A stretch of DNA of 64,000 nucleotides from Escherichia phage PHB12. Under the pieces are notes generated by a model. It did no database searches. It worked only from the letters and a program-made list of their open reading frames with translations, and was not told the DNA's origin. Position numbers and translations under genes: made by a program. Positions 2,932 to 59,082 of the stretch are shown in pieces. The stretch lies in the sequence record MK524178.1; one strand, written 5' to 3'. Every line of letters begins with the position of its first letter. Position 1 is the first letter of the stretch.

Positions 2932-3227
2932 ATGTCCTCTATATTAAATTCATCTTTAAAAAGTTTATTAACCACTAGAGCTATTATATCACCATGACAG
3001 GCTTTTGGTTTACATGTGCATCCTAATCGCATCCCACGTAAAGGTTCAAGATGAGCTTTTGTGATTTCTCCACTTCTAATTCTTTTAATAAAATCCTTTT
3101 TGAAAAGCTCAATAGCTTCTTCTCGAGAAGAGGCATCCTTGCCTACATAATTTCCCCAGAATGTGCCACGATGAATATTAACATCAAAATCTGATTTGTA
3201 TTTATTCACTACGCGGCATATTTTCAT
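2922..3227 (-). CDS. Hypothetical Cys/His-motif protein (nrdA.1 position)
   Basis: 101 aa ORF, 10-bp overlap with nrdA start; motif CTCKPKACHGD; same strand and packing as neighbours. Confidence 0.5.
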   Translation of the reverse strand: MKICRVVNKYKSDFDVNIHRGTFWGNYVGKDASSREEAIELFKKDFIKRIRSGEITKAHLEPLRGMRLGCTCKPKACHGDIIALVVNKLFKDEFNIEDICK

Positions 3228-3445
3228 GTTACGTCAACCTCAAACCAACAGTCATAAACATTATCCAAAAGATTATGCTTATTATATTCATACACCTTTG
3301 TAACAGAGAGAACTCTCTCTTCAAAGCCGTCAACATTAATTGTCTCAGTTTTAATAGGGAGCTCAAGAGGATTAGCATTATAAAGTTCAGCTAACACCTT
3401 TTTACTACCATGTCCTTTACGAACAATACGAATATTGATACCCAT
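3224..3445 (-). CDS. Hypothetical protein
   Basis: 73 aa ORF, 4-bp overlap with downstream gene; operon-like packing. Confidence 0.4.
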   Translation of the reverse strand: MGINIRIVRKGHGSKKVLAELYNANPLELPIKTETINVDGFEERVLSVTKVYEYNKHNLLDNVYDCWFEVDVT

Positions 3446-3693
3446 TAGTTACGTTCCAATTCTTCGTATTCTTTAGGTGTCAAGACTGTGATATCGAAAT
3501 AAACCAACGGTTCTTTTTCTATACCGTAACCACCACAAAATTCACGATATTCATAAATTCGTTCATGTGAATAGCAAATGAATCGTTCACCTTTAACTGT
3601 GATTTCACTATTCGGTGAAGGGATATCCAGTTCGGTAGGATTTTTCATTTCAAAAATTGTGGTGCCATATGAATTAATAAAACGTAAAATCAT
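3445..3693 (-). CDS. Hypothetical protein
   Basis: 82 aa ORF abutting td stop; overlap coupling to next ORF. Confidence 0.4.
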   Translation of the reverse strand: MILRFINSYGTTIFEMKNPTELDIPSPNSEITVKGERFICYSHERIYEYREFCGGYGIEKEPLVYFDITVLTPKEYEELERN

Positions 3694-4554
3694 TTATACC
3701 GCCATTTTAGCTTTGATAGTTGGATGAGATTCGTAATTTTTAAGAACGAAATCAGAATGTGTCATCGTTCCAGTAACCCAGTCCATTTGGATTTTTGTAG
3801 GCCAATTCTCAAAATTACTAGGCCAATTAATTTCAAGAGAACATAACTCTTTAGGTTCACGACGAAGAACTTCTTTGCATTGCTCTACATGATTGCTGTA
3901 GATATGCGTATTGCCGCCTGAGAACACTAAATCACCTGGGATAAGGTTACACATCTTCGCTACAATATGCGTCAAGGCAGCGTACGAGGCGATGTTGAAC
4001 GGCAGGCCCAAGAAAACATCTACACTGCGTTGATACCATTGTAAATCAAGATGTCCATTACGCACATTAAATTGATAGAACATATGACAAGGAGGAAGAG
4101 CCATTTGGTCAATTTCGGCAGGGTTCCATGCAGAAACTATTTGTCGACGATCATTAGGAAGAGCTTTAATACGGTCGATAGTTTTGACCAATTGGTCTAC
4201 ACCACCAAAATCACGCCATTGCTTACCATAAATAGGACCAAGTTCGCCGCTATGATATCCAAGGTCTTTTGCCTGATTTTCGTAGTTATCGTCCCAAATA
4301 GTTTTACCTTGAATAAGACTACCATGAGTACGAATACGCAAATCATTAACATTGGTAGAACCAGACATGAACCATAATAGCTCTGCAATACAAGCTTTCC
4401 ATGCTAATTTCTTAGTTGTTACTGCAGGAAATCCTTTAGTAAGGTCCCATCGCAATTTAGTTCCGAATAGAGCAATAGTGCCGGTACCTGTACGGTCGTC
4501 TGTTTCGTAGCCATTTTCTAAGATATCTTTAATCAAATCTTGATATTGTTTCAT
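3694..4554 (-). CDS. td: Thymidylate synthase (uninterrupted, no intron)
   Basis: 286 aa; MKQYQDLIKDILENGYETDDRTGTGTIALFG and catalytic PPCH motif; the same length as T4 TS as I recall it, in one continuous ORF. Confidence 0.95.
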   Translation of the reverse strand: MKQYQDLIKDILENGYETDDRTGTGTIALFGTKLRWDLTKGFPAVTTKKLAWKACIAELLWFMSGSTNVNDLRIRTHGSLIQGKTIWDDNYENQAKDLGYHSGELGPIYGKQWRDFGGVDQLVKTIDRIKALPNDRRQIVSAWNPAEIDQMALPPCHMFYQFNVRNGHLDLQWYQRSVDVFLGLPFNIASYAALTHIVAKMCNLIPGDLVFSGGNTHIYSNHVEQCKEVLRREPKELCSLEINWPSNFENWPTKIQMDWVTGTMTHSDFVLKNYESHPTIKAKMAV

Positions 4555-24575: not shown

Positions 24576-24651
24576 TAATCATGTTTGTCCAACCAATACA
24601 GCCAAATCACTAGTGCAGCTATTGCACCGAGAAATCCTAAGGCTAGGGCAC

Positions 24652-25977
24652 TCAAAGTGCCTCCAAGTCTTTAGTGTACTCTGTCACAACATCAGTAGAC
24701 TTCCAATACTCATTTTCTTCTTTCTTAGCTTTAGCTTCTTCTGCTAGTTTACGTGCTTCGTCGGAAGTGATATGGAAGATGTTAAGGCCTACCAGTTTAT
24801 CGACATGTTCTTTATACATTTCGATTTGTGCTAGCTCTTCAGTCAAAGCTTTACGAGTCTTGCCCTGAATCACAATTTCACCTGTAATAACTTTTTTGAT
24901 GAAGTGTGCCTTAGCAAAAGCCAGTTTAAATGCTTTTTCAGATTCAAGGATTTTGTTGTCAATACGTTTCTGAACGTAAGTCTTACGGACTTCAACAAAA
25001 TCTTTGATTAAGTCCACTACGTTATCGTAGACAGCTAATTTACCCTTTTCATTAATCACTGTGATGTTTTGTGAACGACGTTCGATGAGACTAAAATCTT
25101 TCATGATTTTTTCATGACGTAGCTCTTCATCATCAGGAAGCGAGTACTCTTTACGGAACTTCACCTTAAACCCAAAGCCGTGTTCACCACAATCATCTTC
25201 CCATGAGATTAGACCTTTGTCTTCCAGCGGGTCAAGAACCTTACTCACATACGTTTCACGGTCAAATTTATATGGGATTTCAGTTATCTGCATTTGAGTG
25301 CGAGATGTGAACTTATATGTTCCGTGAATCTCATAACGCCCATCAACTTCATGTACTTCACCACGGAATTCCGGGAATTCAACTTTTGGCTTAGTGACAT
25401 TTTTACCTTGAAGAGCTTGTAATACAGCCTTTTTGACTGATTTAAAACTATGAGGCAGAATATTTGTTGCGTAACCGGTTGCAATACCGGAGACACCATT
25501 CAAAAGAACTGTTGGAATAATAGGAAGATAGAATTTTGGTGGAATGTGTTCTTTATCTTCATGAGCTGGAGCATATTCAGTATCTTTATATACGTTATAG
25601 AAATTTTTACTTACACGAGCAAAAATATAACGAGACGCTGCAGCTTTTTGGACTGTTCGAGAACCAAAGTTGCCTTGGCCATCTAACAGTGGATAGTTGT
25701 TGTTCCATGTGTTAGCCATCAATGCACCTGCATCTTGTGCAGAAGATTCGCCATGGTGATAACCTAAATCTGCAACACCACCTGCAATTGACGCAAGTTT
25801 ATGAAATTTTTCTTTATTACCACGAGCCAAATCTAACGCACGATGAACCACAAAACGTTGAACCGGCTTAAATCCATCAATCATGTTTGGGATTGCACGG
25901 TTTTCAACGGTGTACATCGCATATGCTAAGGCTTCGTTATCAATAATACTTTTTAGATTACGAGAATTCAATTGCAT
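24652..25977 (-). CDS. 52: DNA topoisomerase II medium subunit gp52
   Basis: 441 aa; MQLNSRNLKSIIDNEALAYAMYTVENRAIPNMIDGFKPVQRFV matches T4 gp52 (GyrA-like). Confidence 0.95.
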   Translation of the reverse strand: MQLNSRNLKSIIDNEALAYAMYTVENRAIPNMIDGFKPVQRFVVHRALDLARGNKEKFHKLASIAGGVADLGYHHGESSAQDAGALMANTWNNNYPLLDGQGNFGSRTVQKAAASRYIFARVSKNFYNVYKDTEYAPAHEDKEHIPPKFYLPIIPTVLLNGVSGIATGYATNILPHSFKSVKKAVLQALQGKNVTKPKVEFPEFRGEVHEVDGRYEIHGTYKFTSRTQMQITEIPYKFDRETYVSKVLDPLEDKGLISWEDDCGEHGFGFKVKFRKEYSLPDDEELRHEKIMKDFSLIERRSQNITVINEKGKLAVYDNVVDLIKDFVEVRKTYVQKRIDNKILESEKAFKLAFAKAHFIKKVITGEIVIQGKTRKALTEELAQIEMYKEHVDKLVGLNIFHITSDEARKLAEEAKAKKEENEYWKSTDVVTEYTKDLEAL

Positions 25978-27623: not shown

Positions 27624-28100
27624 TTAAAGATGAAGATACCACCCGTTGTAGTTGCTCTTGCGGACGATTTTCTTTAGGTCTTCATGGTCTCCCACGAACT
27701 TTATAGAATAAGAGAAGACGTCAGGTGAGGTTTCTTTGACATCCAATATAATAATGCAATCTGCGACTCGATGGTTCAAGAAGGGCCCTATATTGATTCC
27801 ATTACCACCCGGATAATCACCGCTGTATCCTGTGGTAACCGAAATCCATTTAGAATCTATCTGGTGTGTCTTGACTTCTACACGAATTCCGCAATACTTG
27901 GGATGGGCTAACACGTCCCATGCATACGTGTATGGGTCTTCTACGTCTTCAATACCTTTATTAACGTATCCGTCTAGCCAATTTGCTACTACATACTCTG
28001 CAAAGACCGCAACCTTACAACGTCGAACTACATCTTCTTTGTTTTGGCCAGGATTTTGGCTCAGGGAATACCGAGCAGTGTCAGCAATCTTCACCTTCAT
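27624..28100 (-). CDS. Hypothetical protein (T4 denB position; identity not verified)
   Basis: Start set at internal ATG (MKVKIADTARY...) to avoid 128-bp overlap with upstream ORF; between rIIB and ndd where T4 has denB. Confidence 0.35.
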   Translation of the reverse strand: MKVKIADTARYSLSQNPGQNKEDVVRRCKVAVFAEYVVANWLDGYVNKGIEDVEDPYTYAWDVLAHPKYCGIRVEVKTHQIDSKWISVTTGYSGDYPGGNGINIGPFLNHRVADCIIILDVKETSPDVFSYSIKFVGDHEDLKKIVRKSNYNGWYLHL

Positions 28101-28116
28101 TTCACTAGTCAAAAAC

Positions 28117-28404
28117 TCATTCGACAGGATAAATGTCGGAAGATTCTTCAGTCTCAACAGCCCCAAGTTCGTCTTTACCATAGATACCTCTGATGTGTAG
28201 TTCACCAAAATAAATGCGGTCACCTTCTTCAAGATATTCTGCATCTACAGGCGGAATTTCAATAACAACTTCGTCGCATTCTAACCAGCCGTAGTGTGCA
28301 TCACCAGGATGTTTTACCAATTTAGCACAATAAACTGATTTACACTTATGATGACCACGAAGATTAGCAATTTTGGATTCTGATACGTCAAATGGATGAA
28401 TCAT
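28117..28404 (-). CDS. Hypothetical protein
   Basis: Start at ATG 28402-28404 (MIHPFDVSE...) preceded by SD AGGGG and the rIIB terminator hairpin. Confidence 0.4.
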   Translation of the reverse strand: MIHPFDVSESKIANLRGHHKCKSVYCAKLVKHPGDAHYGWLECDEVVIEIPPVDAEYLEEGDRIYFGELHIRGIYGKDELGAVETEESSDIYPVE

Positions 28405-28423
28405 AATTACCCCTAAAGAAAAA

Positions 28424-28439
28424 GGGGACCGAAGTCCCC
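28424..28439 (-). terminator. UUCG-tetraloop hairpin terminator after rIIB (GGGGAC-UUCG-GUCCCC then UUUUUCUUU)
   Basis: Perfect 6-bp stem with UUCG loop and U-run, immediately 3' of rIIB stop. Confidence 0.65.
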
Positions 28440-28444
28440 AATTA

Positions 28445-29380
28445 TTATTCTGCAAATAATTCAGTAACGTCTGAAATTACTTCATAACGACAAGTACGCA
28501 TCTTAGCATCACCATAGTCAACTGGGATAGATACAACATCACGTGGATGAACTTTAACCTTAACAACTTTATCTGAGCTAGAACCAAAGTAACGAATATA
28601 TGATTTAGCACAAACATGTAGACCACGGGAACAAGTTTGTGTATCATCATCGTTAACACGAGTACGAGGCATTGAAACAACTTTACCAGGCGAGTTATCA
28701 AATGTGCCACTATAACAATCTAAATAGTCTTTACGAACTACTTTCCACGCATAGAAATGCCCATCTTCAGTGATTTCAATATCGTTTGCAACCAAGAAGT
28801 CGAATAAACGTTGTACAGCTTTTTCGCTTGGGTTTTCTAACAGGTTTTCAAGGAACGGCAGATAGAATTTAAAGTCTTCGCCTTTTTCCATGGAATCAAT
28901 AATACGATTAACCAGTCCTGAACGAATTTCTATACCTTGATAAAATAAACTACCACCTTCAATAGTAACATTACCATCAACAAACTTAGTAATAGCTTTC
29001 TTGATGTTAATAAGTTCGACAGCTTTACTAAGGTTTCCTGCGACCAAATTAGCTTTAATTTCTTCAAAATTTGCATGACTCGATGGGGTCGCATTGTATG
29101 CTACGCGTCCTTCAATGATTGAAATAAATTTAGATGACGCGTTCCATACGATTTCTGGACGATGACCTGTAATAATAGGTTCATTATTTTCTGGGACCTG
29201 TTCTTCGTCTTCAAATTTAGCTGCTTTCTCTTCAGCTTTAAAATTCTTAACAATCTTACGAAGAGTATCTGTTGAAATGTCGAAGTAATTGGCAATTTCT
29301 TTACGGGTCCATTTGCCTGATTTGACCAGGTTGTAAGCTTCTAACTGTTCTTCTTGGGACAAGCATTTGATATTGTACAT
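28445..29380 (-). CDS. rIIB: rIIB protein
   Basis: 311 aa; MYNIKCLSQEEQ... and ...FLENLLENPSEKAVQRLFDFLVANDIEITEDGHFYAWKVVRKDY... match T4 rIIB. Confidence 0.95.
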   Translation of the reverse strand: MYNIKCLSQEEQLEAYNLVKSGKWTRKEIANYFDISTDTLRKIVKNFKAEEKAAKFEDEEQVPENNEPIITGHRPEIVWNASSKFISIIEGRVAYNATPSSHANFEEIKANLVAGNLSKAVELINIKKAITKFVDGNVTIEGGSLFYQGIEIRSGLVNRIIDSMEKGEDFKFYLPFLENLLENPSEKAVQRLFDFLVANDIEITEDGHFYAWKVVRKDYLDCYSGTFDNSPGKVVSMPRTRVNDDDTQTCSRGLHVCAKSYIRYFGSSSDKVVKVKVHPRDVVSIPVDYGDAKMRTCRYEVISDVTELFAE

Positions 29381-29389
29381 AATGTTTCC

Positions 29390-31603
29390 TTATTTGGCCG
29401 CTTCCACGGCCTTCATGAATTTAACGATTTGAGCGACCTGTTCTTTAGAAAGAGTACCACGTCGTCCCATGTATTCTGACACAATATGATAATTGGTTTC
29501 AAATTCAATAACCATTTTATCATCATTATCGTAAGCATTATCTTTAAGCTTATCGAAAATTTTAGCACACAATTCTAACTTCCTGTTCAGGTCTCTGTTA
29601 TCAGCACCTGCGAATCGATTCCATCCCCAACGATTATTTACTGTTGAAAGTTTTGCAAAATCTTTACTGATTTCTTTGTTCTTAGAGCTAAAATACTTAC
29701 TGAGGAAGTTAAGCTCTTCATTACGAGTAATATGATTCAAATAAGGCTGTGCTCTACGACTTGGTGATACATACTCATCATAATCCACTTTATCAATTAG
29801 CGTAATATAGTCATTAATTGATTTTTCGAACAAGCATTCTACTTCACCAAGTTTACGAACTTTCTTAGCAATCTGTGGACGGACTACAGTGAACTCTTTA
29901 ATACCTGACAAATCAGCAATACGGGTCAAGAAATTAGAATCATAGTTCAACCAACCTTTATCCGCGTCAAGACATTCAGCGTTAGAACGATTACGAATTA
30001 CAACATAACCTTGGATTTCATCAGCTTTACCGGCCGGAATAAAGAGATCTTCTGATACCCAAACATCGTTTTCATTCTTAAAGAACCGATGAGCACTTGG
30101 GGATTTAGGACGAGGCTGCGATGAACGTTCTTTAACTTCAATCCACGGTTTAACTAATGCAAGAATTTCAGAGGTCTTATAAAATTTAAGGCTATCACCA
30201 GCGAAAATAACCTTTAATCGTTCTAGAAGTTTCATTGCAACTTCATCTTCCGGATTAACGAATAATACGCTACTACCCCATCCGGAAGGAACCTTATCAA
30301 CGAGTGTTGATGCATCGGTGGAAGTCAAAGCATCGTTCAGAGCACGCATCATTGGTACACGGCCTTTCACATCGTCAATAACAATATCAATATGCTTACG
30401 ACTAATACCTAGCAGGCTATTAATTGAAATAGTTGAAGACGAGCTTCCGCTTTCACGAATACGACGAAGTCGTGGGTCTGAAACGATATCATATACAACG
30501 CCAAGGTTGCACCATTCAGGTCCCATTTTAAAACGTTTGTACAACTCAGAATAAGTTAGCTGTTCTTTAGAATATTTCAGTGATTCAATATTAGAACCAG
30601 CTTTTTCCATGTATTTACGAGCAGAGTAACCAAGAGAATCGATTTCACGGAATACATGACGTGGATATTCACAATCAATCCATTTCTTAGAATCTTCAGC
30701 AAATAATTTTGCATCGATTTCTGCAACACGTTTATGGATATTTGCTACTGTACGTTTATCAAATGACAATGCTTCACGAGACGGGGCTACATCTAGTTCA
30801 CCCATAGGGAATTTAATATAAGCTGTAGTGCATCGCGTCATCATCCATGTTTGTTCTTTAATAACACTTCCGATTGGATATACAATACCACCATAAACAG
30901 CCATGATATTACCACGTTCACCCCATGGAGCTTCCTTGGCCAAATATACATCATCGAATTCCTGGAAGTATTTGATATCTTTAACACCACGAACTTCTGC
31001 AATATCGCCGAGAGGACGCATAACATAAGCAATTTCGGATGCGAACTTTTCAAAATCTTCCGGGTTAACAGGCACAACTACTTCAACGCCGGTCCGGTCA
31101 TCAGGACCCATCTTATCTACAAAGGTTGGCTTAATCTGTGGACCTGTGTCATCTTGATAAATTACATAACCACGAACTTCACCGTTGTGATAAGACGTAA
31201 GGTTAAACGTATCGGTATATGCTAGTGGAGCTTTAGAACCGAGTCCGAATCCACCAATGAAATCGTTACTCGATGTTTTAGTTGAAGCAAAATATGAGTT
31301 ATAGATTCCTGGCTCTTCATCATTACCTCGAATGGTGAAATCACTCATACCAGGACCAAAGTCTCGAACTACAAAACGTGGGTCTAAACGACCTGGAGCC
31401 TGAACAATAAACTTATCAGTGCAACCATTAAGAATTTGTCCATCGATACAGTTTGTGATTAATTCACGTACACAAGCCAATTCTTTGTTTGTATAAAGGT
31501 CATTAGACAAAATCTTATAAACTTTGCTATTGCCTTGAATAGTAAATGCTGTGCTCTTACCGCCTGAACCAATAATCGTTTCTTTAGCCGTTTCAATAAT
31601 CAT
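29390..31603 (-). CDS. rIIA: rIIA protein (GHKL-type ATPase fold)
   Basis: 737 aa; MIIETAKETIIGSGGKSTAFTIQGNSKVYKILSNDLYTNKELACVRELITNCIDG; T4 rIIA-like. Confidence 0.95.
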   Translation of the reverse strand: MIIETAKETIIGSGGKSTAFTIQGNSKVYKILSNDLYTNKELACVRELITNCIDGQILNGCTDKFIVQAPGRLDPRFVVRDFGPGMSDFTIRGNDEEPGIYNSYFASTKTSSNDFIGGFGLGSKAPLAYTDTFNLTSYHNGEVRGYVIYQDDTGPQIKPTFVDKMGPDDRTGVEVVVPVNPEDFEKFASEIAYVMRPLGDIAEVRGVKDIKYFQEFDDVYLAKEAPWGERGNIMAVYGGIVYPIGSVIKEQTWMMTRCTTAYIKFPMGELDVAPSREALSFDKRTVANIHKRVAEIDAKLFAEDSKKWIDCEYPRHVFREIDSLGYSARKYMEKAGSNIESLKYSKEQLTYSELYKRFKMGPEWCNLGVVYDIVSDPRLRRIRESGSSSSTISINSLLGISRKHIDIVIDDVKGRVPMMRALNDALTSTDASTLVDKVPSGWGSSVLFVNPEDEVAMKLLERLKVIFAGDSLKFYKTSEILALVKPWIEVKERSSQPRPKSPSAHRFFKNENDVWVSEDLFIPAGKADEIQGYVVIRNRSNAECLDADKGWLNYDSNFLTRIADLSGIKEFTVVRPQIAKKVRKLGEVECLFEKSINDYITLIDKVDYDEYVSPSRRAQPYLNHITRNEELNFLSKYFSSKNKEISKDFAKLSTVNNRWGWNRFAGADNRDLNRKLELCAKIFDKLKDNAYDNDDKMVIEFETNYHIVSEYMGRRGTLSKEQVAQIVKFMKAVEAAK

Positions 31604-31615
31604 ATTTTTCTCTCA

Positions 31616-31816
31616 TCACAAGTTACGTTTAAAAATTTCTGCTACTTCAAGAAGTTCTTCTTTAGTAGCTGTATCGGTTTGTATTTTATATCGAATTTCC
31701 TTAAAGCGTTCTTTAAAGGCTTCAGCTGACTCGATATCAAAAAATCTTTGGATAAGCCGGAATTCCCGGAGCACCGCTTTATCAAAAAGGTCCAAGTCCA
31801 CGTTATATGTTCTCAT
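31616..31816 (-). CDS. Hypothetical protein (rIIA.1 position)
   Basis: 66 aa ORF immediately upstream of rIIA. Confidence 0.5.
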   Translation of the reverse strand: MRTYNVDLDLFDKAVLREFRLIQRFFDIESAEAFKERFKEIRYKIQTDTATKEELLEVAEIFKRNL

Positions 31817-31841
31817 AATATTCTCTTCAGTAGATTCCTAG

Positions 31842-31892
31842 GGCACTATTACTAAAGACCATATAATCTATCATCTTATGTGTAATAGTGCC
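31842..31892. repeat. Perfect 11-bp inverted repeat GGCACTATTAC / GTAATAGTGCC separated by 29 bp
   Basis: Read directly from sequence; lies in the 92-bp gap between the glycosyltransferase gene and rIIA.1. Confidence 0.8.
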
Positions 31893-31908
31893 TCAGGCGA
31901 TTCAGGAT

Positions 31909-33009
31909 TTACGCTGTGAAGATTTTATCCCACATCGCAACAACTGCATCTCGGTTATACTTCTTCCATACTGCTTCAGCACGTTTAACTCGAGCTTCGT
32001 ATGTGTCAGTGAATTCTAATACAGCTTTTGTGTAAAGCGCAACTACTTCTTTCTTAGGAGTAGAGGAATCAATTTCTACACGCACAGTATCTGGGTCGTA
32101 TTCAAATGTCGCATGAGGATAATCCTTAAAAACTAACTGGATTACAGGGACACCTTTAGAGATGGCTTCAATAGAACTATTCTCTACCGTACCTGTGTTA
32201 GGACACGTATTAATAAGTGCTTTAGCTGTTTTAAGACGTTCCATGATTTCACTGTGTGGAGCATCAATAATAACAGGATATTTAGCTGGTGGTGCCCATT
32301 TGCTTGGACAGTATCCTACACCATTTTCGCCTAGTGCTTTAATCGCTTCAAGAGCAACATCAGTACGACGCATTTTAGTGTCATAACGTTGTGCACTAAT
32401 AATCAGATCAGTCGCCGGAAGAACTTCAGGTTTCTCATTCAAACAAATAACCGGATAATCTTCGGCTTCAAACAACGGATTTGCTCGCCAATAATCATAA
32501 TCAATTTTGTCAGTCAGACCTGAAGTCATATAACAATATTTGCGTTCAAATTCACGGAAGGCTTTAGTAGGAGCATAACTCTTACCACCATTCTTATGAA
32601 TTTGAATAGTCTGGTCCCAAATTTGAACAATGCCACGAGATACAGGTTCAAATGGTGTTGCCATAAAATTCTTATGAACTTTAGAGAGACCTGCGTCTTT
32701 AATTGCCTGAACGGTTAGTTTAGTCGGTTCCATAGTAACAACAAAATCGTATTCATGGATGCCGGCTAGTTCAACAATCTTACGAGCCATAGTATAACTC
32801 ATACCTAGACTGAATTTAGTCAGATGACCAACAGGATGGTGTGTAACTTTCCAGTCACCAAACGTGTCATTATCAAAACCGATATAATCAATATCAGCAC
32901 CAATAGAAACTAAATATTTCAACACATTTAAATGTACTGCTTCAAGGCCACCTTGTACACGGTCAGGATTAAATGGGACTGCACGAGATGGGATAAACAT
33001 AACTTTCAT
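31909..33009 (-). CDS. GT-B fold glycosyltransferase (candidate DNA hmC pentosyl/arabinosyl-transferase)
   Basis: 366 aa; C-terminal ...TGTVENSSIEAISKGVPVIQ fits the GT-B E-x7-E/GxPVI donor-binding signature; occupies the slot where T4 has gene 60/mobA. Confidence 0.7.
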   Translation of the reverse strand: MKVMFIPSRAVPFNPDRVQGGLEAVHLNVLKYLVSIGADIDYIGFDNDTFGDWKVTHHPVGHLTKFSLGMSYTMARKIVELAGIHEYDFVVTMEPTKLTVQAIKDAGLSKVHKNFMATPFEPVSRGIVQIWDQTIQIHKNGGKSYAPTKAFREFERKYCYMTSGLTDKIDYDYWRANPLFEAEDYPVICLNEKPEVLPATDLIISAQRYDTKMRRTDVALEAIKALGENGVGYCPSKWAPPAKYPVIIDAPHSEIMERLKTAKALINTCPNTGTVENSSIEAISKGVPVIQLVFKDYPHATFEYDPDTVRVEIDSSTPKKEVVALYTKAVLEFTDTYEARVKRAEAVWKKYNRDAVVAMWDKIFTA

Positions 33010-33034
33010 AATTAAGCCTTATTAAATTAAAATG

Positions 33035-33052
33035 AAGCTCCCGAAGGAGCTT
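33035..33052 (-). terminator. UUCG-tetraloop hairpin overlapping gene 39 stop codon
   Basis: AAGCUCC-UUCG-GGAGCUU on minus strand followed by CAUUUUAAUUU. Confidence 0.5.
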
Positions 33053-34868
33053 AGGACATCCATTCTTTACGAAGTTCTGAATCATCACCCAACAACATTT
33101 CAAAGAGTTCTTTCCAATTTTCAGGAAGTTTAACTACGTCGTACACAGGGTTTTGAATCATTTCACGATATTCTGACTTTTCAAGGGAGCCCAATCCCTT
33201 GATGTATCGAATACTATGCTTAGGCAGTGTATCTTTAGCTTCTTCATACTCAGCTACAGTATAAAACCATTTTTGAGTTTTGCCAATTTGTGCAATAATT
33301 ACAGGCGTTTTAACAAAGCGAATACGTCCTTGTTCAAACAATTCAGGCCAATTACTAAAGAAAGCAAGCAAAGCCGGATAAATACTTCCAAGACCGTCAT
33401 GATCGGCATCGGTCATAATTGCAATATTACGATAGTTCGTATTCTCTGCCTTTTCACCAAGAATAAGACCTGTGATAGCACAGATATCAAAGAGCTCTTT
33501 GTTCTTCATCATATCAGCATATGACATACCCCAGCTATTCATTACCTTACCACGTAATGGGAACCCGCCGTGTAGTTCACGGTCACGAACATCAATGAGA
33601 TAACCAATTGCCGAATCACCTTCTGTTAAAAACAATGTCGTATCTGCATCTTTACCACATTGGTTAGCTTTAATATGCTTATGAACCTTAGCTTTAGTTG
33701 CCTTTTTAGCTGCTTTAGTTTCTGCAGCCTTTTCTGCTGCCAATTTACGAGCTAATGCTGCTTCAACAATAGGCATAATCAAGGCTTCGTTTTTAAGAAG
33801 TGCCTGAGCAATTTTCTTAGTATCTAATTGGATATGATTACGAATATCACCATACGTTGACGTTAAACGTTCTTTAGTCTGAGAATCAAAACGCATGTTG
33901 CTCATGTCTCTAATAAACATCAACATTGTGAGACATTCTTTAACACGAGCTTTAGTGACTTCAATACCCTTATATTTCTTTTTAATACCAGGCAAAAGAT
34001 GTTCGCAGATATCATCCATTACACATTCAACGTGATGACCGCCATTTTTAGTATGGATGTTATTCACATAAGTTAAATGTCGGAAGCCATCTGGTGATGT
34101 TGTGAATGCTATAGAGACTTTATCATTTTCTTGAATGATGTTATCTTCGCCAAATTGTTTAGCAAATCGTTTAAAATTACCATCAACCTTTTTACCATTA
34201 AATGTGAACTTGATATCAGGATAAACGACTGCCAATGTTTGAAGTCGGTCTAAAGTAATATCTAAATAAATTTGAGATAAATTATGCTCTTCAAATGAAG
34301 AGAAATCAGGAGTGAAGATTACTTTAGTGCCTTTACCTTTAGATTTCTTAGAAGACCATGATTTGTTTTCCATTCCGTTTGAACAGTTAACAGTGATTTC
34401 ATTTTCGCCATCTGACGTGATGCCTGTAAACAACGTAGAGAAGATATTAGTTAAACTACTCCCGACGCCGTTCATACCACCAGTCTTACGTTCAGAGTCA
34501 TCGCCAAAGTTACCACCAGCCTTTGGAATAGTCCAGGCTGCTACAGGCCCAGGAATTTGTTCACCTGTTTGGTCGGTAACTAAACCTTGAGGAATACCAC
34601 GCCCGTTATCTTCCACCGAAACTTGATTATTTTTAATTTGCACATCAATTTTATTTGCAAACTTAAATGATGTACGAATAGCTTCATCAACCGAGTTGTC
34701 AATAATCTCATCGATTAATTTAACCAGACCAGGAACATATTCAACTTGTTGATATTTACCAAACAAAAAACGCTCGTGGGCTTCTTTGGCCGAAGAACCA
34801 ATATACATGCCACTACGTTTCTTAATATGTTCTACATCTGACAATACCTTAATTTCATTTTTAATCAT
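33051..34868 (-). CDS. 39: DNA topoisomerase II large subunit (uninterrupted gene 39; no separate gene 60)
   Basis: 605 aa; GyrB-like ATPase and Toprim motifs; single ORF as in T2-type phages rather than T4 split 39/60. Confidence 0.95.
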   Translation of the reverse strand: MIKNEIKVLSDVEHIKKRSGMYIGSSAKEAHERFLFGKYQQVEYVPGLVKLIDEIIDNSVDEAIRTSFKFANKIDVQIKNNQVSVEDNGRGIPQGLVTDQTGEQIPGPVAAWTIPKAGGNFGDDSERKTGGMNGVGSSLTNIFSTLFTGITSDGENEITVNCSNGMENKSWSSKKSKGKGTKVIFTPDFSSFEEHNLSQIYLDITLDRLQTLAVVYPDIKFTFNGKKVDGNFKRFAKQFGEDNIIQENDKVSIAFTTSPDGFRHLTYVNNIHTKNGGHHVECVMDDICEHLLPGIKKKYKGIEVTKARVKECLTMLMFIRDMSNMRFDSQTKERLTSTYGDIRNHIQLDTKKIAQALLKNEALIMPIVEAALARKLAAEKAAETKAAKKATKAKVHKHIKANQCGKDADTTLFLTEGDSAIGYLIDVRDRELHGGFPLRGKVMNSWGMSYADMMKNKELFDICAITGLILGEKAENTNYRNIAIMTDADHDGLGSIYPALLAFFSNWPELFEQGRIRFVKTPVIIAQIGKTQKWFYTVAEYEEAKDTLPKHSIRYIKGLGSLEKSEYREMIQNPVYDVVKLPENWKELFEMLLGDDSELRKEWMS

Positions 34869-52533: not shown

Positions 52534-53082
52534 TTAACGAGCCCATTTGATAATTTCTGTAATCAAATTATTACGTTCGCTTGCATTAAATCCTATAACT
52601 TTGTTAGCACCATCATGATTAAGTAATTGATACGTTTGGATTTTGTTATGAATTGCAAACTCTTCAAAATATGAAATGACTGTATTAAAACCAAATGAAG
52701 ACAAAGTAATAAGGTCGTCTTCAAAACTTTCAGTCATTTCGTTACGTGTTAAAATAATTGTGAACACATCATGGTTTTGGCAAAGACGAACATAATCCTG
52801 TTCATAAACGTCAAGAACCGAGTCCACATCTTGTCGAATACGTCCATAAACCCAGTTACTAATATATCCACGGTCTAACAGATAAATCTTAGTAGGGTCT
52901 AAATAATTCAACATCGTTTCGAAACAGCCAACTTCATTTCGAGACTTAACATCGAAACGTCCATCAACTGTTCGTTTAGGGAAATCAATCTTTACATATC
53001 TTTCACTAATTTCCATTATGTCATTAATGAAAGTTGTTTTACCAGCATTATCCGGGCCATCTACTAAAATAATTTTAGCCAT
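52534..53082 (-). CDS. Thymidylate-kinase-like P-loop nucleotide kinase
   Basis: 182 aa; Walker A ILVDGPDNAGKTT and DR(Y)-like LLDRGYISNWVYG as in dTMP/dNMP kinases. Confidence 0.6.
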   Translation of the reverse strand: MAKIILVDGPDNAGKTTFINDIMEISERYVKIDFPKRTVDGRFDVKSRNEVGCFETMLNYLDPTKIYLLDRGYISNWVYGRIRQDVDSVLDVYEQDYVRLCQNHDVFTIILTRNEMTESFEDDLITLSSFGFNTVISYFEEFAIHNKIQTYQLLNHDGANKVIGFNASERNNLITEIIKWAR

Positions 53083-53083
53083 T

Positions 53084-53983
53084 TTATTCCTCGATTATGA
53101 CATCTTCGTATTTAGGTATATTATACGGTGAAGAAATTAAAGCATTAAAGTAGATGAACTCACCAAGACCTGGATGGAATACTTCTTCAGGATTTTCGAA
53201 ATATTGAATCTTCGGCCGTCCTTTAAGAATTTGATAGTACTCAGTTTTAGTTGGTTTAAAAATTCGAATCAGTGCTTCTTCAGGATACTTATTTCTGTCG
53301 AAGCTATTATTTGGATCGGTTATATAAAGCGGTTGACCTAATTGAATTGCACATTCAACCACTTGTTCAAAACGATAACACGGGTCACTAATTCGAAATG
53401 GATGAAAAATACCATCTAGATGAATAGGAGCCAAATCACCTACAAGACGCTGCATGATGGAAGGACGTATAACTTTCTGCGTTACGATAATCTTATTACC
53501 ATCTGCACCTGCGTTAACCAGCACTTCTTTTTGACGTTCATTCAACACAGTAGTTTGAAGTGAACGATTAACAGACAACATGTCGGTTTTTAAGAATTCG
53601 TCAATATAAAAACGTGGTTTATTAGAGTCTGCAGTAATATTGAAATTGAATTCTACGTCAAAAGTGCCGTCATATCCAGTGATATCTGTGATTAGAAAAT
53701 CACAATCATAATAATCAATTAATGAATCAACCACAAATTCATTTTCAGACCAGAAATATTTACGAGTGTTATATGCGTTATCTTTATACCATAATGGAAC
53801 AAACTTAAATTCTGGGAAAAGACGTTCACATTCTTTAATATCAGATGCATTACGTGGATATGTAATTACATCACCCGGATTAGCACGGTGCAAATGAAGT
53901 TGGAAGTTGCCATCCTTAAGGATAGCATACTGTCCAGTTTCATAAGACCGCATACTCAAGATAGGTACGCGGAAAATAGCCAT
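53084..53983 (-). CDS. Hypothetical protein in the T4 beta-gt slot
   Basis: 299 aa; no motif assigned; sits between uvsX and gene 42 where T4 encodes beta-glucosyltransferase. Confidence 0.5.
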   Translation of the reverse strand: MAIFRVPILSMRSYETGQYAILKDGNFQLHLHRANPGDVITYPRNASDIKECERLFPEFKFVPLWYKDNAYNTRKYFWSENEFVVDSLIDYYDCDFLITDITGYDGTFDVEFNFNITADSNKPRFYIDEFLKTDMLSVNRSLQTTVLNERQKEVLVNAGADGNKIIVTQKVIRPSIMQRLVGDLAPIHLDGIFHPFRISDPCYRFEQVVECAIQLGQPLYITDPNNSFDRNKYPEEALIRIFKPTKTEYYQILKGRPKIQYFENPEEVFHPGLGEFIYFNALISSPYNIPKYEDVIIEE

Positions 53984-54699
53984 TAGTCAAGGAATCCTTT
54001 AACATAATCAAAATCACGTTCAAACACATGGGCACTTACCATGGTATGAGTATAATCACCAACTTCTACACCACATTCGTTAGCGATATAATGAAGTAAT
54101 TTTCCTTGGAGATAAAAATCCAACTGCATAACAACAGCACAGTTCTGAGAACGCATATGACAGTGGGTATAAAGCTTACCATCACGAATATAATAAGTCA
54201 CTGAGTCAGTACATGGATATTCAAGTGTTTCATCCGAATCAAGCAAAGCCTGATCTGAACTTTCAAGAATTTGAAACACAACTCTTCGTGAATTAGGTTT
54301 CTCTTTAAGTTCTTTTAGAAGAGTTGGTAACTGGGCCGCAATGCGAGGACCATAGAAAGTGTTGAAGTTCGCAGGCAAAGCATCTGATTTTGGTTTAGAA
54401 ATAAATTTAGCGACGTTAGGATATGCCTTAAATGCTTCTTCTGCATCAGTACCACCAGAAATCATAAATTTCCAGAAATCTTCAGCATATTCATAAGAGA
54501 TGCGATTAATACGTGGGTCGGTCATTTTGAATGATGAAGGGGTATCAACAACTACTGTCATAGACCCAATTTCATTACAACGTCCAATACGAGAGTCAGT
54601 AACGAACTGTGGATTTTCTAAAATTTCACGATTGACAGCTTTAAATGCGGATTGAAAATCTGCGGCTTTAATATATTTCATTGTGTTATGTTTTCCCAT
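53983..54699 (-). CDS. 42: dCMP hydroxymethylase homolog (thymidylate-synthase family), divergent
   Basis: 238 aa; catalytic YPCTDSV, PNSRRVVFQ, and HMRSQNCAVVMQLDFY with Asp at the position aligning to T4 D179 (cytosine specificity); I estimate about 30-35% identity to T4 gp42 by eye. Confidence 0.8.
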   Translation of the reverse strand: MGKHNTMKYIKAADFQSAFKAVNREILENPQFVTDSRIGRCNEIGSMTVVVDTPSSFKMTDPRINRISYEYAEDFWKFMISGGTDAEEAFKAYPNVAKFISKPKSDALPANFNTFYGPRIAAQLPTLLKELKEKPNSRRVVFQILESSDQALLDSDETLEYPCTDSVTYYIRDGKLYTHCHMRSQNCAVVMQLDFYLQGKLLHYIANECGVEVGDYTHTMVSAHVFERDFDYVKGFLD

Positions 54700-54978: not shown

Positions 54979-56139
54979 TCATTCCGGGTACCTCAAAGCG
55001 TCATCAGAGTTAGTTATATCAATAATAGATATAGAGTTTTCTGCTAACCCATTTTTAGATAACTGACGTTTATAATATCTTTCACAATATGTACACGTCG
55101 TCCCGCAGATTTCATTAGCACAATCGAAATCTGGATGTCTGAACCACCTTTTTTCTAAAAAGCCATCTAACAAAGAGGTTTCAATATTTACTGTATGTGA
55201 AAACTCGGTTTCGTTTTCAAGAGTGAAAATAGTCTCTAAAGGCTTCCACAATTCCAACAAATTACCTTCAAATTTTTCAGAAGCATAAGCTTCAAGAACT
55301 TTCAAAATGTAGTCTGTGCTACCTGTACGTCCTGAAACTTTGAATTGAGTGATACCAATATCATTATAAAGTTTCAAATCTTGAGGACGAACAAAACGAG
55401 TTCTCAACCAGTTAAATGGGTCTGTATCACGAGCTTTAATACAGTGTTGCATTGGATATCCATTTAAGGATTTGGCATCATCTACTGTAACGTCGGTGCT
55501 ATGGAAAATATAGCAAGAGTCACGATAGCTACAATGTGTTGTATACCCTTTACCAGCATTAGAACAGAACTCATTTACAAGAACTTCAAATATTATATTG
55601 TTCTTATTACAAAACTCTGCTGCGCGTTTCAGGAAAGAAACTGAACGGTTCTTATGAATTCCACAGCAGACCTTTTTGATATTATATTGGTCATGCAAAT
55701 ATTTGATTTGAGTTACAGCATCAACATGTAGAATTGTTGAAACTTCAATCTCAATGTCTTTATTGACTTCACGAACAATTTCCATAACAACAGGGTTAGC
55801 GATAGTAATACGCCATACGCCTATTGACCAAAGATACTGAACATAATCCTGAATAGCTTTCTTCTTCCACTCAACTAGTTCTCTTTTTGAACCAGGATTT
55901 ATCGTGTTGAGTGTATAGTTAAAGCAAATACCTAATTCGTTACAACGTTTAACATAATCTTCTAACATCTTTTTGTCAACGTCAGGAAGCCTAAAATCAG
56001 GTCTGGCTGCTACAAAAGCCATTTCTCTTGTAGAGCCGTATACTTCGTTTATCAAGCTATTAGGATAAGTTTTATTGAGCTCTACGATTTTATCAAGAAG
56101 AGCTAAATCAAAATTCGTTCCGATTTTAAAGGTATTCAT
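54979..56139 (-). CDS. Peptidase-U32-family-like protein with Cys clusters
   Basis: 386 aa; FEVLVNEFCSNAGKGYTTHCSY resembles the U32 signature (E-[IV]-F-V-x-G-A-L-C...G-x-C); C-terminal CANEICGTTCTYC; assignment from motif recollection only. Confidence 0.45.
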   Translation of the reverse strand: MNTFKIGTNFDLALLDKIVELNKTYPNSLINEVYGSTREMAFVAARPDFRLPDVDKKMLEDYVKRCNELGICFNYTLNTINPGSKRELVEWKKKAIQDYVQYLWSIGVWRITIANPVVMEIVREVNKDIEIEVSTILHVDAVTQIKYLHDQYNIKKVCCGIHKNRSVSFLKRAAEFCNKNNIIFEVLVNEFCSNAGKGYTTHCSYRDSCYIFHSTDVTVDDAKSLNGYPMQHCIKARDTDPFNWLRTRFVRPQDLKLYNDIGITQFKVSGRTGSTDYILKVLEAYASEKFEGNLLELWKPLETIFTLENETEFSHTVNIETSLLDGFLEKRWFRHPDFDCANEICGTTCTYCERYYKRQLSKNGLAENSISIIDITNSDDALRYPE

Positions 56140-56193: not shown

Positions 56194-56580
56194 TTATAGA
56201 TTCGGTTTATATGATTTAAATGTTTCGAATTCGCCTTTATTCATAAGAGCTTTGAATTCGTCAGGACGCATAGCTTTGTCGTCGATAATCCAATCATATA
56301 CTGGTTTATGTGTTAGCAAATTATGGTACTTCAATCCAATGTTTGCCAAGTTCTGAATCAGACTTGGGAGAATGTCAATTGCTATACGACCAGGACCGAC
56401 TGACTTCATACCGCGAGCAGTGTAAAGAGTTATTGTATGCCCTGCATCATACAGGGCATTAATGGCAGACACCATTTCGACGTCTGGTTTGAAGTTCACG
56501 TAATCACGATTGTTATTCCACTCTGTTATACAATCATCGACATCAAAACAAAGATTAAGCATGTTTTCTACACGGTGCAT
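56194..56580 (-). CDS. Small HAD-like phosphatase (candidate sugar-phosphate phosphatase)
   Basis: About 128 aa from ATG 56580 (TAATG coupling); HAD-like motif I FDVDDCIT, motif II ITLYTARG, motif IV WIIDDK. Confidence 0.5.
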   Translation of the reverse strand: MHRVENMLNLCFDVDDCITEWNNNRDYVNFKPDVEMVSAINALYDAGHTITLYTARGMKSVGPGRIAIDILPSLIQNLANIGLKYHNLLTHKPVYDWIIDDKAMRPDEFKALMNKGEFETFKSYKPNL

Positions 56581-58265
56581 TAGATTCGTTCCCATTGATG
56601 AGTGATATCGCCACCGATTGGACGATAGGAAACACCAGTTTCTTTATCAGTTAGTACCCATTTACCAGGATTTTTTGTAATCAGAGTAGCCGTTACAGGT
56701 TCTGCTACGTCATAACTAATAGAGCCGTCTTGAAGTACACGGCCCATGTTACGTAATTGCTTAGTCAGAAGTTCCATACCTTTATAATATGCGGCTACCG
56801 CTTTAAGTGGATTATTCTTGAAATAACCACCTAATGCAATCCAGATAATTGCTACAGCCAAATGATGATATTCATTAAACGAACTCATCTTTCCATATTT
56901 GTAAACTAATGGATTGATGTTAATAGTCACATTACAAGTTGTTTCATCAATAGTAAACTGTCCCCAGGTCGGATTAGCGTTGAATTCATCATAACCTGAA
57001 ACAGCATAAAGCACTTTAGCTTCATCGTACAATTTTGGCCCATAAATCTTGGTTTCGCCAAAATATCCACGAGGGTCGATAAACTTAACTTCGCCGTTAT
57101 CAGTAATCATAGTATTACTGAAGTTCGGGTCACCATGAATAACAGAGTACTGTCCCTGAGAACGATTATGATAACGAATAAGGTGTTCTAAAGCTTGTTT
57201 CAGCATTGGCTTCAGACGTCCAATCTTAGTGTAGTTCACATGTGTGATTTTACCAAATGAATCAATCAATGGTTGAATGCTTTCACAACGATCAATAACT
57301 TTCGTATAGAATTCTTTAGTGAAATCACGACGAACAGTTTCAGGACTTACAAAATAAGTGTCTGTGCTGAATTTCAGTGCATCTAAAATTGCATCAACAA
57401 TTTGTGGACGAGCAAGACTCGATTTGGATTTAATATATTCAAATGCCGGCTTACCTTTAATGCGTTCCATTTCAAAGTTATTTTCATTAACAGAAACTAA
57501 CTGAGGAACTGAATCTGATTTCACTTTAAGATACCATGAAATCTCATCTTTCTGAAGAGCTCGGCCCTGTTCGGTTAATGCGAATTTAGTTACAGTTTCT
57601 TCACCAATTTCAACTGCATTAAAACTACGATTAAGTTCACGAACTTCATGAGCTTTTTCAAGTTTAGGCATATCACCTAAATCAATTAGATTCATAAGCT
57701 CTGATTTATTGAATGCGCTGCCGTAAAGGAATTCTACGAAATCACGTCCTTTGCAGTATTCATGAATTTCCTCATCAGTAGAACCCATATAGAATTCCCA
57801 GTCTTTGAACTGATAAATTCCTACAACATTACCACCTGTTGAACCTACGTTAGTGATATTTTCACCGTCGAAATTATATCGACATTCGTCACCCTTAACA
57901 TAGATTGCGTTAACATTCCAAGACCATGAGCCAAAATCAGGAATAATATCACACCAGTTAACAATTACATTATGGCCGTCTAAATCTTTGTGTAATTTAG
58001 CAAGAGCATAAGCAGAACCATACGCTTCATCAACTGTACGAATAGTCACATTGAACCCTTCTTGCTCACAATAAGCTCGAACAGTTTCAGCAAATTTTGA
58101 ATGAACTACTACAATAATTTCATCTGCGCCAAGGTCAGAATAAATTGTATACAAATTGCTCAGAATAGTGTCTTGTTTATAGTTAACAAGCACCTTAGGA
58201 ATATGATGCGTTATTGGATACAAACGAGTTGCCAGTCCAGCACCAAGAATAACAGCTTTTTTCAT
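56580..58265 (-). CDS. Bifunctional sugar-1-phosphate nucleotidyltransferase / APH-ChoK-like sugar kinase
   Basis: 561 aa; N-terminal KAVILGAGLATRLYPIT (NTP-transferase G-x-G-T-R), C-terminal VIHGDPNFSNTMI...KFIDPRG (Brenner H-G-D-x4-N and D-x-E kinase motifs). Confidence 0.75.
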   Translation of the reverse strand: MKKAVILGAGLATRLYPITHHIPKVLVNYKQDTILSNLYTIYSDLGADEIIVVVHSKFAETVRAYCEQEGFNVTIRTVDEAYGSAYALAKLHKDLDGHNVIVNWCDIIPDFGSWSWNVNAIYVKGDECRYNFDGENITNVGSTGGNVVGIYQFKDWEFYMGSTDEEIHEYCKGRDFVEFLYGSAFNKSELMNLIDLGDMPKLEKAHEVRELNRSFNAVEIGEETVTKFALTEQGRALQKDEISWYLKVKSDSVPQLVSVNENNFEMERIKGKPAFEYIKSKSSLARPQIVDAILDALKFSTDTYFVSPETVRRDFTKEFYTKVIDRCESIQPLIDSFGKITHVNYTKIGRLKPMLKQALEHLIRYHNRSQGQYSVIHGDPNFSNTMITDNGEVKFIDPRGYFGETKIYGPKLYDEAKVLYAVSGYDEFNANPTWGQFTIDETTCNVTININPLVYKYGKMSSFNEYHHLAVAIIWIALGGYFKNNPLKAVAAYYKGMELLTKQLRNMGRVLQDGSISYDVAEPVTATLITKNPGKWVLTDKETGVSYRPIGGDITHQWERI

Positions 58266-58306: not shown

Positions 58307-58450
58307 CTAGTTAAAGCATTCATACTTTGCTTGTAGTCCAATCATAATCCATCCGATTATAAGAGTCGGAATCATTACTGGAGCCGTTAAGCTCCAGTAG
58401 ATAGTCATGACAAGCATCAATAGTAAAAGTCCTATTGTTATTGCTTTCAT
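58307..58450 (-). CDS. Putative small membrane protein (47 aa)
   Basis: Manual translation MKAITIGLLLLMLVMTIYWSLTAPVMIPTLIIGWIMIGLQ...; ATGA coupled to SIS gene stop. Confidence 0.3.
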   Translation of the reverse strand: MKAITIGLLLLMLVMTIYWSLTAPVMIPTLIIGWIMIGLQAKYECFN

Positions 58451-59082
58451 TGTTCGCCTCGTAACATGGCACCTAGTGCACCGCCAGGGTGGAACTTAAG
58501 GAAGTCATTAGAGGTAAATCCACGTTCAGACGAAAGGTTGATAGCAAACGTATCGATAAGCGCTAACAACAATGTAGTGGACATGGTCGGAGCCAGAGAA
58601 TTCTCATCGACCTCTACTGCGATGCCTGTACAGAACGTATAATCAAAAAGAGCTTCGTATTCTTGTGGAATGTCTGGGTTACAATGCAACAGAATCTGTT
58701 TGACGTTCGGACGAATCATTTTAAGATGCTTAGCCACGCCTATCATTTCTTCAGTTTTACCGGAACGACTAATATGAATCAACACATCATTAGGCGCAAT
58801 GAATCCTGCATCACCGTGAGAATAATGCCCAGTGTTCAAGTACATACTCGGGATACCGAGTGAAGCAAATGTCTCAGAAGCTTTAGTTGCAATATTAGCA
58901 TTCTTACCAACACCTGTAATAATTACTCGGCTTTCATAATTACTAAGTCCAGGGCGTCGAAGAGTTTCTAGAATAGCATTATAACGAGCAGGGTTTTGAC
59001 TAATTACTTTGGCCATAGCGGCCAAAGAAGAAGCTTGTTTTATGATTGCGTCAATAGCGATAGTAATAGGAGTAGTTTTCAT
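58447..59082 (-). CDS. SIS-domain sugar-phosphate isomerase (KdsD/GutQ-like; candidate arabinose-5-phosphate isomerase)
   Basis: 211 aa; ITGVGKNANIATKASETFASLGIPS and C-terminal HPGGALG are SIS-domain hallmarks. Confidence 0.75.
   Translation of the reverse strand: MKTTPITIAIDAIIKQASSLAAMAKVISQNPARYNAILETLRRPGLSNYESRVIITGVGKNANIATKASETFASLGIPSMYLNTGHYSHGDAGFIAPNDVLIHISRSGKTEEMIGVAKHLKMIRPNVKQILLHCNPDIPQEYEALFDYTFCTGIAVEVDENSLAPTMSTTLLLALIDTFAINLSSERGFTSNDFLKFHPGGALGAMLRGEQ

Follow-up and report, generated by a model that had tools for sequence, protein, structure and literature searches.

A GT-B glycosyltransferase encoded beside gene 39 of Escherichia phage PHB12 is the probable second DNA arabinosyltransferase of a Mosigvirus modification pathway

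Results

We analysed a 64,000-nucleotide stretch of Escherichia phage PHB12 (record MK524178.1), here called the window, and asked what is encoded by the 366-aa open reading frame (ORF) at 31909..33009 on the minus strand. The ORF is annotated here as a GT-B (GT4-like) DNA arabinosyltransferase, putatively the second (beta-1,3) one of its pathway; RB69 ORF003c/gp3 and the phage HY126 glycosyltransferase (PDB 9IQZ/9IR0) are its orthologues. We consider it probable that this Mosigvirus gp3 orthologue is a soluble, UDP-sugar-dependent GT-B glycosyltransferase that acts on DNA and adds the second arabinose. An earlier note, made from the letters of the window, had proposed the protein as the transferase that puts a pentose onto hmC. 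Its placement of the protein in a DNA pentosylation system holds, but the protein is not the only candidate transferase in the window, the base is probably not hmC, and the second sugar is a more likely task for the protein than the first.

A conserved gene between rIIA.1 and an unsplit gene 39

The ORF described earlier was recovered exactly, with an ATG start, and the peptide quoted from it, TGTVENSSIEAISKGVPVIQ, corresponds to residues 272-291. PHROG 8302 matches positions 1-366 of 366 (E=3e-222) and copies with at least 95% protein identity were found in 155 phage records, so this is a conserved gene and not a chance ORF. Reading the sequence directly, we found a Shine-Dalgarno AAGG at 33017..33020 (minus strand), 7 nt 5' of the ATG at 33009.

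Both neighbours named in the earlier note were found. On the downstream side rIIA.1 lies at 31616..31816 (minus strand; Pfam T4_RIIA1, E=5e-30) and beyond it rIIA at 29390..31603, on the same strand as the ORF. Upstream is the 605-aa large subunit of topoisomerase II at 33051..34868 (minus strand), in which the HATPase, Toprim and gene-60-equivalent C-terminal parts share one frame, and gene 39 is therefore unsplit. The T4 order is rIIA.1, 60, 60.1, mobA, 39, where gene 60 encodes the C-terminal part of the topoisomerase subunit, a part that the window has fused into gene 39. The earlier statement that the ORF sits where T4 carries gene 60 and mobA is therefore loosely but not exactly right, as its position is not that of mobA, whose insertion divides the T4 gene. 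Since the ORF is placed past the end of an unsplit topoisomerase gene, it is equivalent in position to the T4 60/rIIA.1 junction.

Two RNA hairpins flank the gene. A 7-bp stem with a UUCG loop followed by CATTTTAATT lies at 33035..33052 (minus strand) and overlaps the gene 39 stop codon; it is an intercistronic hairpin or a site resembling a weak terminator that separates gene 39 from the ORF. The second, at 31837..31897 (minus strand), lies between the stop codon of the ORF and the start of rIIA.1 and is strong (-28.5 kcal/mol, z = -6.0), with none of 200 shuffled sequences folding as stably.

The DNA around the ORF is 98-99% identical to many Mosigvirus (RB69-like) genomes. Comparison with the RB69 reference gave 98.9% identity to RB69 ORF003c/gp3 (NP_861693.1) over 366 aa. 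The two genes occupy equal positions between rIIA.1 and an unsplit gene 39, and the proteins differ by four substitutions, T56N, V231A, N271D and T327I (window to RB69). Of these residues N271, which is D in RB69, falls in a conserved donor-site loop. The remaining modification genes of the window are 97-99.7% identical to those of RB69 and its DNA polymerase is 100% identical. The glycosyltransferase of phage HY126 is also about 99% identical (E=2e-250 to 9IQZ in a search of PDB sequences) and differs in nothing of substance. By full-length homology the protein belongs to one family with RB69 gp3, the HY126 enzyme, DLP3 gp76 and gp77 and PHROG 8302.

The protein has a GT-B fold related to family GT4

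Crystal structures of the HY126 glycosyltransferase were released on 2025-07-16, one apo (9IQZ) and one with UDP (9IR0). Because this enzyme is about 99% identical to the 366-aa protein, the GT-B (GT4-like) fold is confirmed, as the earlier note had predicted, and the orthologue structures also place a UDP site in it. Fold searches returned GT4 enzymes as the closest structures; examples of CAZy GT4, which carry the Glyco_transf_4 and Glycos_transf_1 domains, are sucrose-phosphate synthase (6KIH), BshA and PimA.

Sequence models were less informative. Pfam assigned no family to the ORF even at E<=10, including PF00534 and PF13439, and neither NCBIfam models nor a family-profile search of PDB sequences gave a direct family assignment. 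PF20706 (GT4-conflict) matched weakly (E=0.003) in two of nine members of the family. A profile of the family run against 1.84 billion representatives retrieved only 24 proteins. Eight of the ten weaker profile hits that we scanned were bona fide Glyco_transf_4 plus Glycos_transf_1 proteins, mostly over their full length, and these tie the family to GT4 by sequence also. The GT4 link thus has only two sources, the fold searches and those weak profile hits that proved to be GT4 proteins. Neither in sequence nor in structure did we find a close relationship to T4 alpha-GT (PDB 1Y6F/1XV5) or beta-GT.

Residues G20, G21, R208, R214, K263 and E281 are invariant in the family, as is the loop T272-G273-T274-V275-E276; the residue that precedes this loop is N271 in the window and D271 in most Mosigvirus. 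Thomas et al. (PMC6024577) aligned G20, the arginine (Arg-207 there) and E281 to phosphate- and ribose-binding residues of T4 alpha-GT. The donor-binding signature had been read earlier as E-x7-E. We found that E281 is indeed its second glutamate, but the residue eight positions upstream is the invariant G273, and the conserved acidic pair is E276/E281, that is, E-x4-E. The protein therefore differs from CAZy GT4 enzymes in lacking the first glutamate of the EX7E motif and would differ from them also in its acceptor, predicted to be a sugar carried on DNA.

The window encodes a second glycosyltransferase and an arabinosylation pathway

Arabinose in RB69 DNA was reported by Thomas et al. in 2018 (PMC6024577), who took the modified base to be arabinosyl-hmC and put forward ORF003c as the transferase responsible. 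Lee et al. (2026, PMC13326640) have since established by MS/MS and NMR that RB69 cytosine is beta-D-Araf-(1->3)-alpha-D-Araf-O5-cytosine. In Mosigvirus DNA the sugar is O-linked directly to C5 of 5-hydroxycytosine (5hoC), with no methylene bridge (PMC13326640, PMC13390438), and the ThyA homologue RB69 gp48 was shown experimentally to make 5-hydroxy-dCMP (PMC13326640). The ThyA-family orthologue of gp48 lies at 53983..54699 of the window (minus strand; Pfam Thymidylat_synt, E=2e-15; 98.7% identity). The acceptor base hmC named in the earlier note does not agree with these data; by orthology, the base in this phage is predicted to be 5-hydroxycytosine.

By eye, the ThyA-like protein reads RSQN...LDF where E. 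coli ThyA reads RSCD...PFN, which would give D169N and N177D. D169N is the published signature of 5hoC synthases. We did not rely on this reading.

It had also been stated that no other alpha-gt or beta-gt homologue was visible and that the T4 beta-gt slot held unrelated genes. We found instead that this slot is occupied by a second GT-B protein, a compact glycosyltransferase of 299 aa at 53084..53983 (minus strand). Its RB69 orthologue, gp46:47, is interrupted by a frameshift in the RB69 reference, whereas the gene in the window is intact. The 299-aa protein is the proposed first (alpha) arabinosyltransferase on 5-hydroxycytosine. The gene starts at the end of the ThyA-like gene and lies upstream of a kinase-like gene and uvsX. 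Pfam gave no hit for the 299-aa protein. BLASTP detected no similarity between it and the 366-aa protein, which indicates that the two are not recent paralogues.

The other genes of the cluster surround it, all on the minus strand. At 52534..53082 is a nucleotide kinase-like protein, 97.8% identical to RB69 gp45 (assignment from Table 1 of PMC13326640), and at 54979..56139 a Peptidase-U32-family protein that may have a part in the pathway (PF01136, E=6e-11; 99.2% to gp50). A HAD-like sugar phosphatase (56194..56595; 99.2% to gp51; function from PMC13326640) is analogous to HY126 AfhF. The orthologue of gp52:53, analogous to HY126 AfhE, is a bifunctional nucleotidyltransferase and kinase that makes UDP-arabinofuranose (56580..58265; NTP_transferase, E=9e-10, plus weak kinase hits; 99.5-99.7% to RB69p053/p052). 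A SIS-domain arabinose-5-phosphate isomerase follows at 58447..59082 (Pfam SIS, E=2e-10; 99.1% to gp55). In RB69 the sugar genes were assigned to UDP-Araf synthesis by analogy with AfhE and AfhF (PMC13326640). The genome that encodes the 366-aa protein thus also has the genes for 5-hydroxy-dCMP synthesis, for the making of UDP-Araf and for the 299-aa transferase. They lie at 52.5-59.1 kb, about 19.5 kb from the 366-aa ORF, which agrees with the separation of some 20 kb noted earlier.

Phylogenetic distribution and gene context point to a chain-extending role

For RB69, Lee et al. (2026, PMC13326640) proposed that gp46:47 carries out the first (alpha) transfer and gp3 the second (beta) one, and their Table 1 lists gp3 as 'beta-arabinosyltransferase 2'. 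The alternative is that the 366-aa enzyme initiates, placing the first pentose directly on the modified cytosine, while the 299-aa protein extends the chain or does something else. This was the original 2018 proposal for ORF003c (PMC6024577) and the fold is compatible with either role. We therefore compared the occurrence of the two proteins.

By tblastn the 299-aa transferase was found in 348 phage records, from phages of Escherichia, Acinetobacter, Klebsiella, Serratia, Enterobacter, Proteus, Yersinia, Edwardsiella and more, and among the annotated matches listed a ThyA homologue adjoins it. The 366-aa family was found in 211 records, which are Mosigvirus or Acinetobacter phages; one is labelled Tegunavirus sp., and its match is Acinetobacter-phage-like. 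Phages named for Klebsiella, Serratia, Enterobacter, Proteus and Yersinia appear in the tally of the 299-aa protein only. In a large protein database the 299-aa family forms at least 138 clusters, against 9 at 90% identity for the 366-aa family. Many phages therefore combine the 299-aa transferase with the ThyA-like gene and the sugar genes but have no member of the 366-aa family. Dhakavirus WG01, which was among the matches of the 299-aa protein, has the ThyA-like gene, the 299-aa transferase, an ORF of the size of the NTP-transferase/kinase and a small ORF at the phosphatase position. Its rIIA.1-39 slot holds no 366-aa gene, and two small ORFs lie there beside an unsplit gene 39. Of the two transferases, Serratia phage 92A1 too has the 299-aa one only. 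The 299-aa transferase is thus the universal partner of the pathway and the published candidate for the first sugar. Shigella phage JK45 was considered as a natural knockout of the 366-aa gene and rejected; it carries an intact gene and a partial tandem duplicate.

The number of transferases follows the number of sugars. Thanatos has a single arabinosyltransferase, syntenic with gp46:47, and mono-arabinosylated DNA (PMC13326640), which argues against an initiating role for the 366-aa enzyme. RB69, NP, Bas46 and Bas47 have two transferases and di-arabinosylated DNA, and DLP3 has three and tri-arabinosylated DNA (PMC13326640, PMC13390438, PMC12923530). In Mosigvirus NP, of the Durham collection, mono- and di-arabinosyl species occur at 1:4 and the two transferase genes lie at the same two locations (PMC13390438); Bas46 and Bas47 are both doubly arabinosylated (PMC12923530).

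Gene context agrees with this pattern. In three of the four contexts examined, members of the 366-aa family adjoin or neighbour a homologue of the 299-aa transferase. The cluster of Acinetobacter phage Apostate reads ThyA-like gene, 299-aa-type transferase, kinase, and two copies, A and B, in tandem. A metagenomic T4-like contig has a single copy, 36% identical, in the same position within the cluster just before uvsX, and on another contig the copy abuts a homologue of the 299-aa transferase. On the fourth, short contig the copy lies near a DNA ligase gene. In Mosigvirus the gene appears to have moved to a variable slot, the one between rIIA.1 and 39.

Biochemically tested paralogues act on arabinosylated DNA

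We next compared the protein with the Acinetobacter-phage paralogues. It is 43% identical to Apostate orf070 (E=9e-111) and 40% identical to orf069 (E=3e-97), in both cases over the full length. Apostate served here as a stand-in, and its orf070 and orf069 are the equivalents of DLP3 gp77 and gp76, respectively, by position. Through Apostate the protein is therefore homologous to a biochemically tested pair. That these paralogues lie within an arabinosylation gene cluster bears out the link to DNA pentosylation made in the earlier note.

DLP3 gp76 and gp77 together transferred a third Araf from UDP-Araf onto RB69 DNA, while individual transferases gave no arabinosylation of 5hoC-DNA (PMC13326640). 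The pair, of the same family as the 366-aa protein, thus acts on arabinosylated 5hoC in DNA, which speaks against an initiating role. The same study leaves some support for that role, as the initiating step has been reconstituted in vitro with no enzyme so far and the DLP3 homologue of the 299-aa transferase was inactive on 5hoC-DNA (PMC13326640). We found no in-vitro activity for RB69 gp3 itself in the openly readable literature. Taking the distribution, with the small size of the 366-aa family, together with the single-transferase phages and the paralogue biochemistry, we consider it unlikely that the 366-aa enzyme adds the first sugar.

The DLP3 data also raise the possibility that the 366-aa enzyme works only when bound to a partner, be it the 299-aa transferase or some other phage protein, and is either inactive alone or serves as a subunit for specificity or processivity. 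Tri-arabinosylation in DLP3 required both paralogues, and single enzymes were inactive (PMC13326640); in other phages the gene of the 299-aa transferase usually adjoins the family members. The DLP3 requirement counts against a lone extender, since Mosigvirus has one copy. However, the paralogues are two tandem copies within the modification cluster that jointly build a tri-arabinoside, whereas the window has a single copy, separated by 19.5 kb from the gene of its putative partner. In the donor site, residues G20/G21, R208 and E281 are intact and invariant, and the orthologue was crystallised with UDP by itself. We regard an obligate complex as quite improbable.

It is highly improbable that the protein glycosylates a target other than DNA, for instance a protein, a nucleotide or part of the host envelope, and is linked to DNA modification by coincidence: its nearest structural neighbours do act on small molecules, lipids or polysaccharides and some records name a mannosyltransferase or alpha-glucosyltransferase, but the family is confined to T4-like phages and T4-like metagenomic contigs, the arabinosylation cluster was present wherever the context sufficed, the paralogues modify DNA in vitro (PMC13326640), and Mosigvirus DNA bears exactly one sugar more than that of single-transferase phages.

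The distribution, the gene context, the paralogue biochemistry and the match between transferase and sugar counts thus point to the 299-aa transferase as the initiator and to the 366-aa enzyme as the chain extender. A citing paper states that the Mosigvirus Bas46, once it had lost its arabinosyltransferase Aat, was sensitive to a defence system encoded on a plasmid (PMC13216743). This fits an accessory, non-essential transferase, and Aat may be the product of the 366-aa gene.

Discussion

Our data support a pathway of four steps. Deoxycytidine would be replaced by 5-hydroxy-dC, made as 5-hydroxy-dCMP by the ThyA-like enzyme, and UDP-D-arabinofuranose would be made by the genes at 56-59 kb. The 299-aa transferase would then put the first alpha-D-Araf on the C5 oxygen. 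Finally, the 366-aa enzyme, which we infer to act alone, would use UDP-Araf to add a second D-Araf at O3 of the first, DNA-bound sugar, giving in PHB12 the disaccharide established for RB69. The longer glycan would widen the range of host nucleases and other defences from which the phage DNA is protected.

One point sits uneasily with an extender role. The nearest structural relatives of the 366-aa protein are retaining GT4 enzymes, and the proposed product linkage is beta. Both transferases resemble retaining GT4 enzymes and presumably both use UDP-D-Araf, yet they would form opposite linkages. The linkage to the base is alpha and the one joining the sugars is beta, so that one of the transferases must follow a stereochemical course that is 'wrong' for its scaffold. 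Because the 366-aa protein lacks the first glutamate of EX7E and would form the beta linkage, we tentatively suggest that it may combine a GT4-type scaffold with an inverting mechanism.

The beta-glucosyl-alpha-glucosyl-hmC transferase of T2 and T6 is a second-sugar enzyme that forms a gentiobiosyl unit. Like it, the 366-aa enzyme would be a second-step extender of a sugar on modified cytosine, and both systems have mixed mono- and di-glycosylated bases (PMC13390438 and general knowledge). The two differ in that the T2/T6 enzyme uses glucose, 5hmC and another linkage, as opposed to arabinofuranose and 5hoC in Mosigvirus.

The gene is not new. The proposal for it dates from 2018, and its reassignment as second arabinosyltransferase, its structure and its pathway were published in 2025-2026. 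As a description has been available from 2018 onwards and a structure has been deposited, our analysis adds no new biology, and its remaining value is in annotation. Nearly all public records of the gene read 'hypothetical protein', and a few misname it alpha-glucosyltransferase or mannosyltransferase.

Arabinosylated 5-hydroxycytosine shields the DNA of Mosigvirus and related phages from restriction enzymes, CRISPR-Cas and DNA glycosylases, and the length of the sugar chain alters which defences are evaded. The assignment of genes to sugars therefore matters for the defence sensitivity of therapeutic phages, for phage engineering and for annotation.

A polymorphic residue in the 366-aa transferase

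The 366-aa DNA arabinosyltransferase of PHB12 has asparagine at residue 271 (codon at window 32197..32199, minus strand), within the conserved loop NTC-x-(N/D)-TGTVEN. In contrast, its RB69 and HY126 orthologues have aspartate at this position. We found aspartate in 13 of the 14 Mosigvirus cluster members examined, and all eight distant family members have asparagine. Judged from sequence, the difference is a single-residue polymorphism adjoining the presumed donor site.

Public records do not name this gene consistently. Of the 253 cluster members, most carry the label "hypothetical protein", while "DNA alpha-glucosyltransferase" is the label in the HX01 RefSeq record and in several Acinetobacter phages, and one public record reads [quoted passage not shown].

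Hairpins flank the 366-aa ORF

Both sides of the ORF carry a minus-strand hairpin. A UUCG-tetraloop hairpin at window 33035..33052 overlaps the stop codon of gene 39; a T-rich tail comes next, and the ribosome-binding site of the 366-aa ORF lies just downstream. Beyond the other end, a very stable hairpin at window 31837..31897 occupies the bulk of the 92 nt that separate the stop codon of the ORF from the start of rIIA.1. It has a perfect stem of 11 bp with further extensions (-28.5 kcal/mol, z = -6.0) and might act in RNA processing, RNA stability or termination.

The arabinosylation cluster and relatedness to RB69

In the RB69 reference the 299-aa transferase of the arabinosylation cluster is split into two ORFs, p046/p047 (24597..25497), as is the bifunctional nucleotidyltransferase-kinase, p052/p053 (28094..29780). 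In the window, however, each is one intact ORF. The published view is that both RB69 splits are sequencing errors, and the intact ORFs agree with this. The cluster also holds a peptidase-U32-family gene, the orthologue of RB69 gp50 (window 54979..56139, minus strand). No gene annotated as or sized like this one was found in the equivalent clusters of the Acinetobacter phage Apostate, Dhakavirus WG01 or the metagenomic contig L007.

Relatedness to RB69 was unequal across the window. At the protein level the DNA polymerase (59123..61834) and RB69 gp43 are 100% identical, whereas the topoisomerase subunit gp39 (33051..34868) shares only 96% protein identity with its RB69 counterpart. This hints that the window is related to RB69 in a mosaic fashion.

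Other copies of the family in T4-like genomes

In Shigella phage JK45 we observed an intact copy of the 366-aa gene and, in tandem behind it, a partial duplicate coding for the C-terminal ~136 aa (together 1501..3104 of the examined locus). Either a genuine duplication or an assembly artefact could account for the duplicate. The JK45 record is filed as Tequatrovirus despite its Mosigvirus-type genes. The most distant family member, with 34% identity, lies at 3040..4224 of a JGI metagenome contig (L008), where it adjoins a DNA ligase gene and a DsbA-like gene and, on this short contig, stands outside any modification cluster. The family seems to move between variable slots in T4-like genomes.
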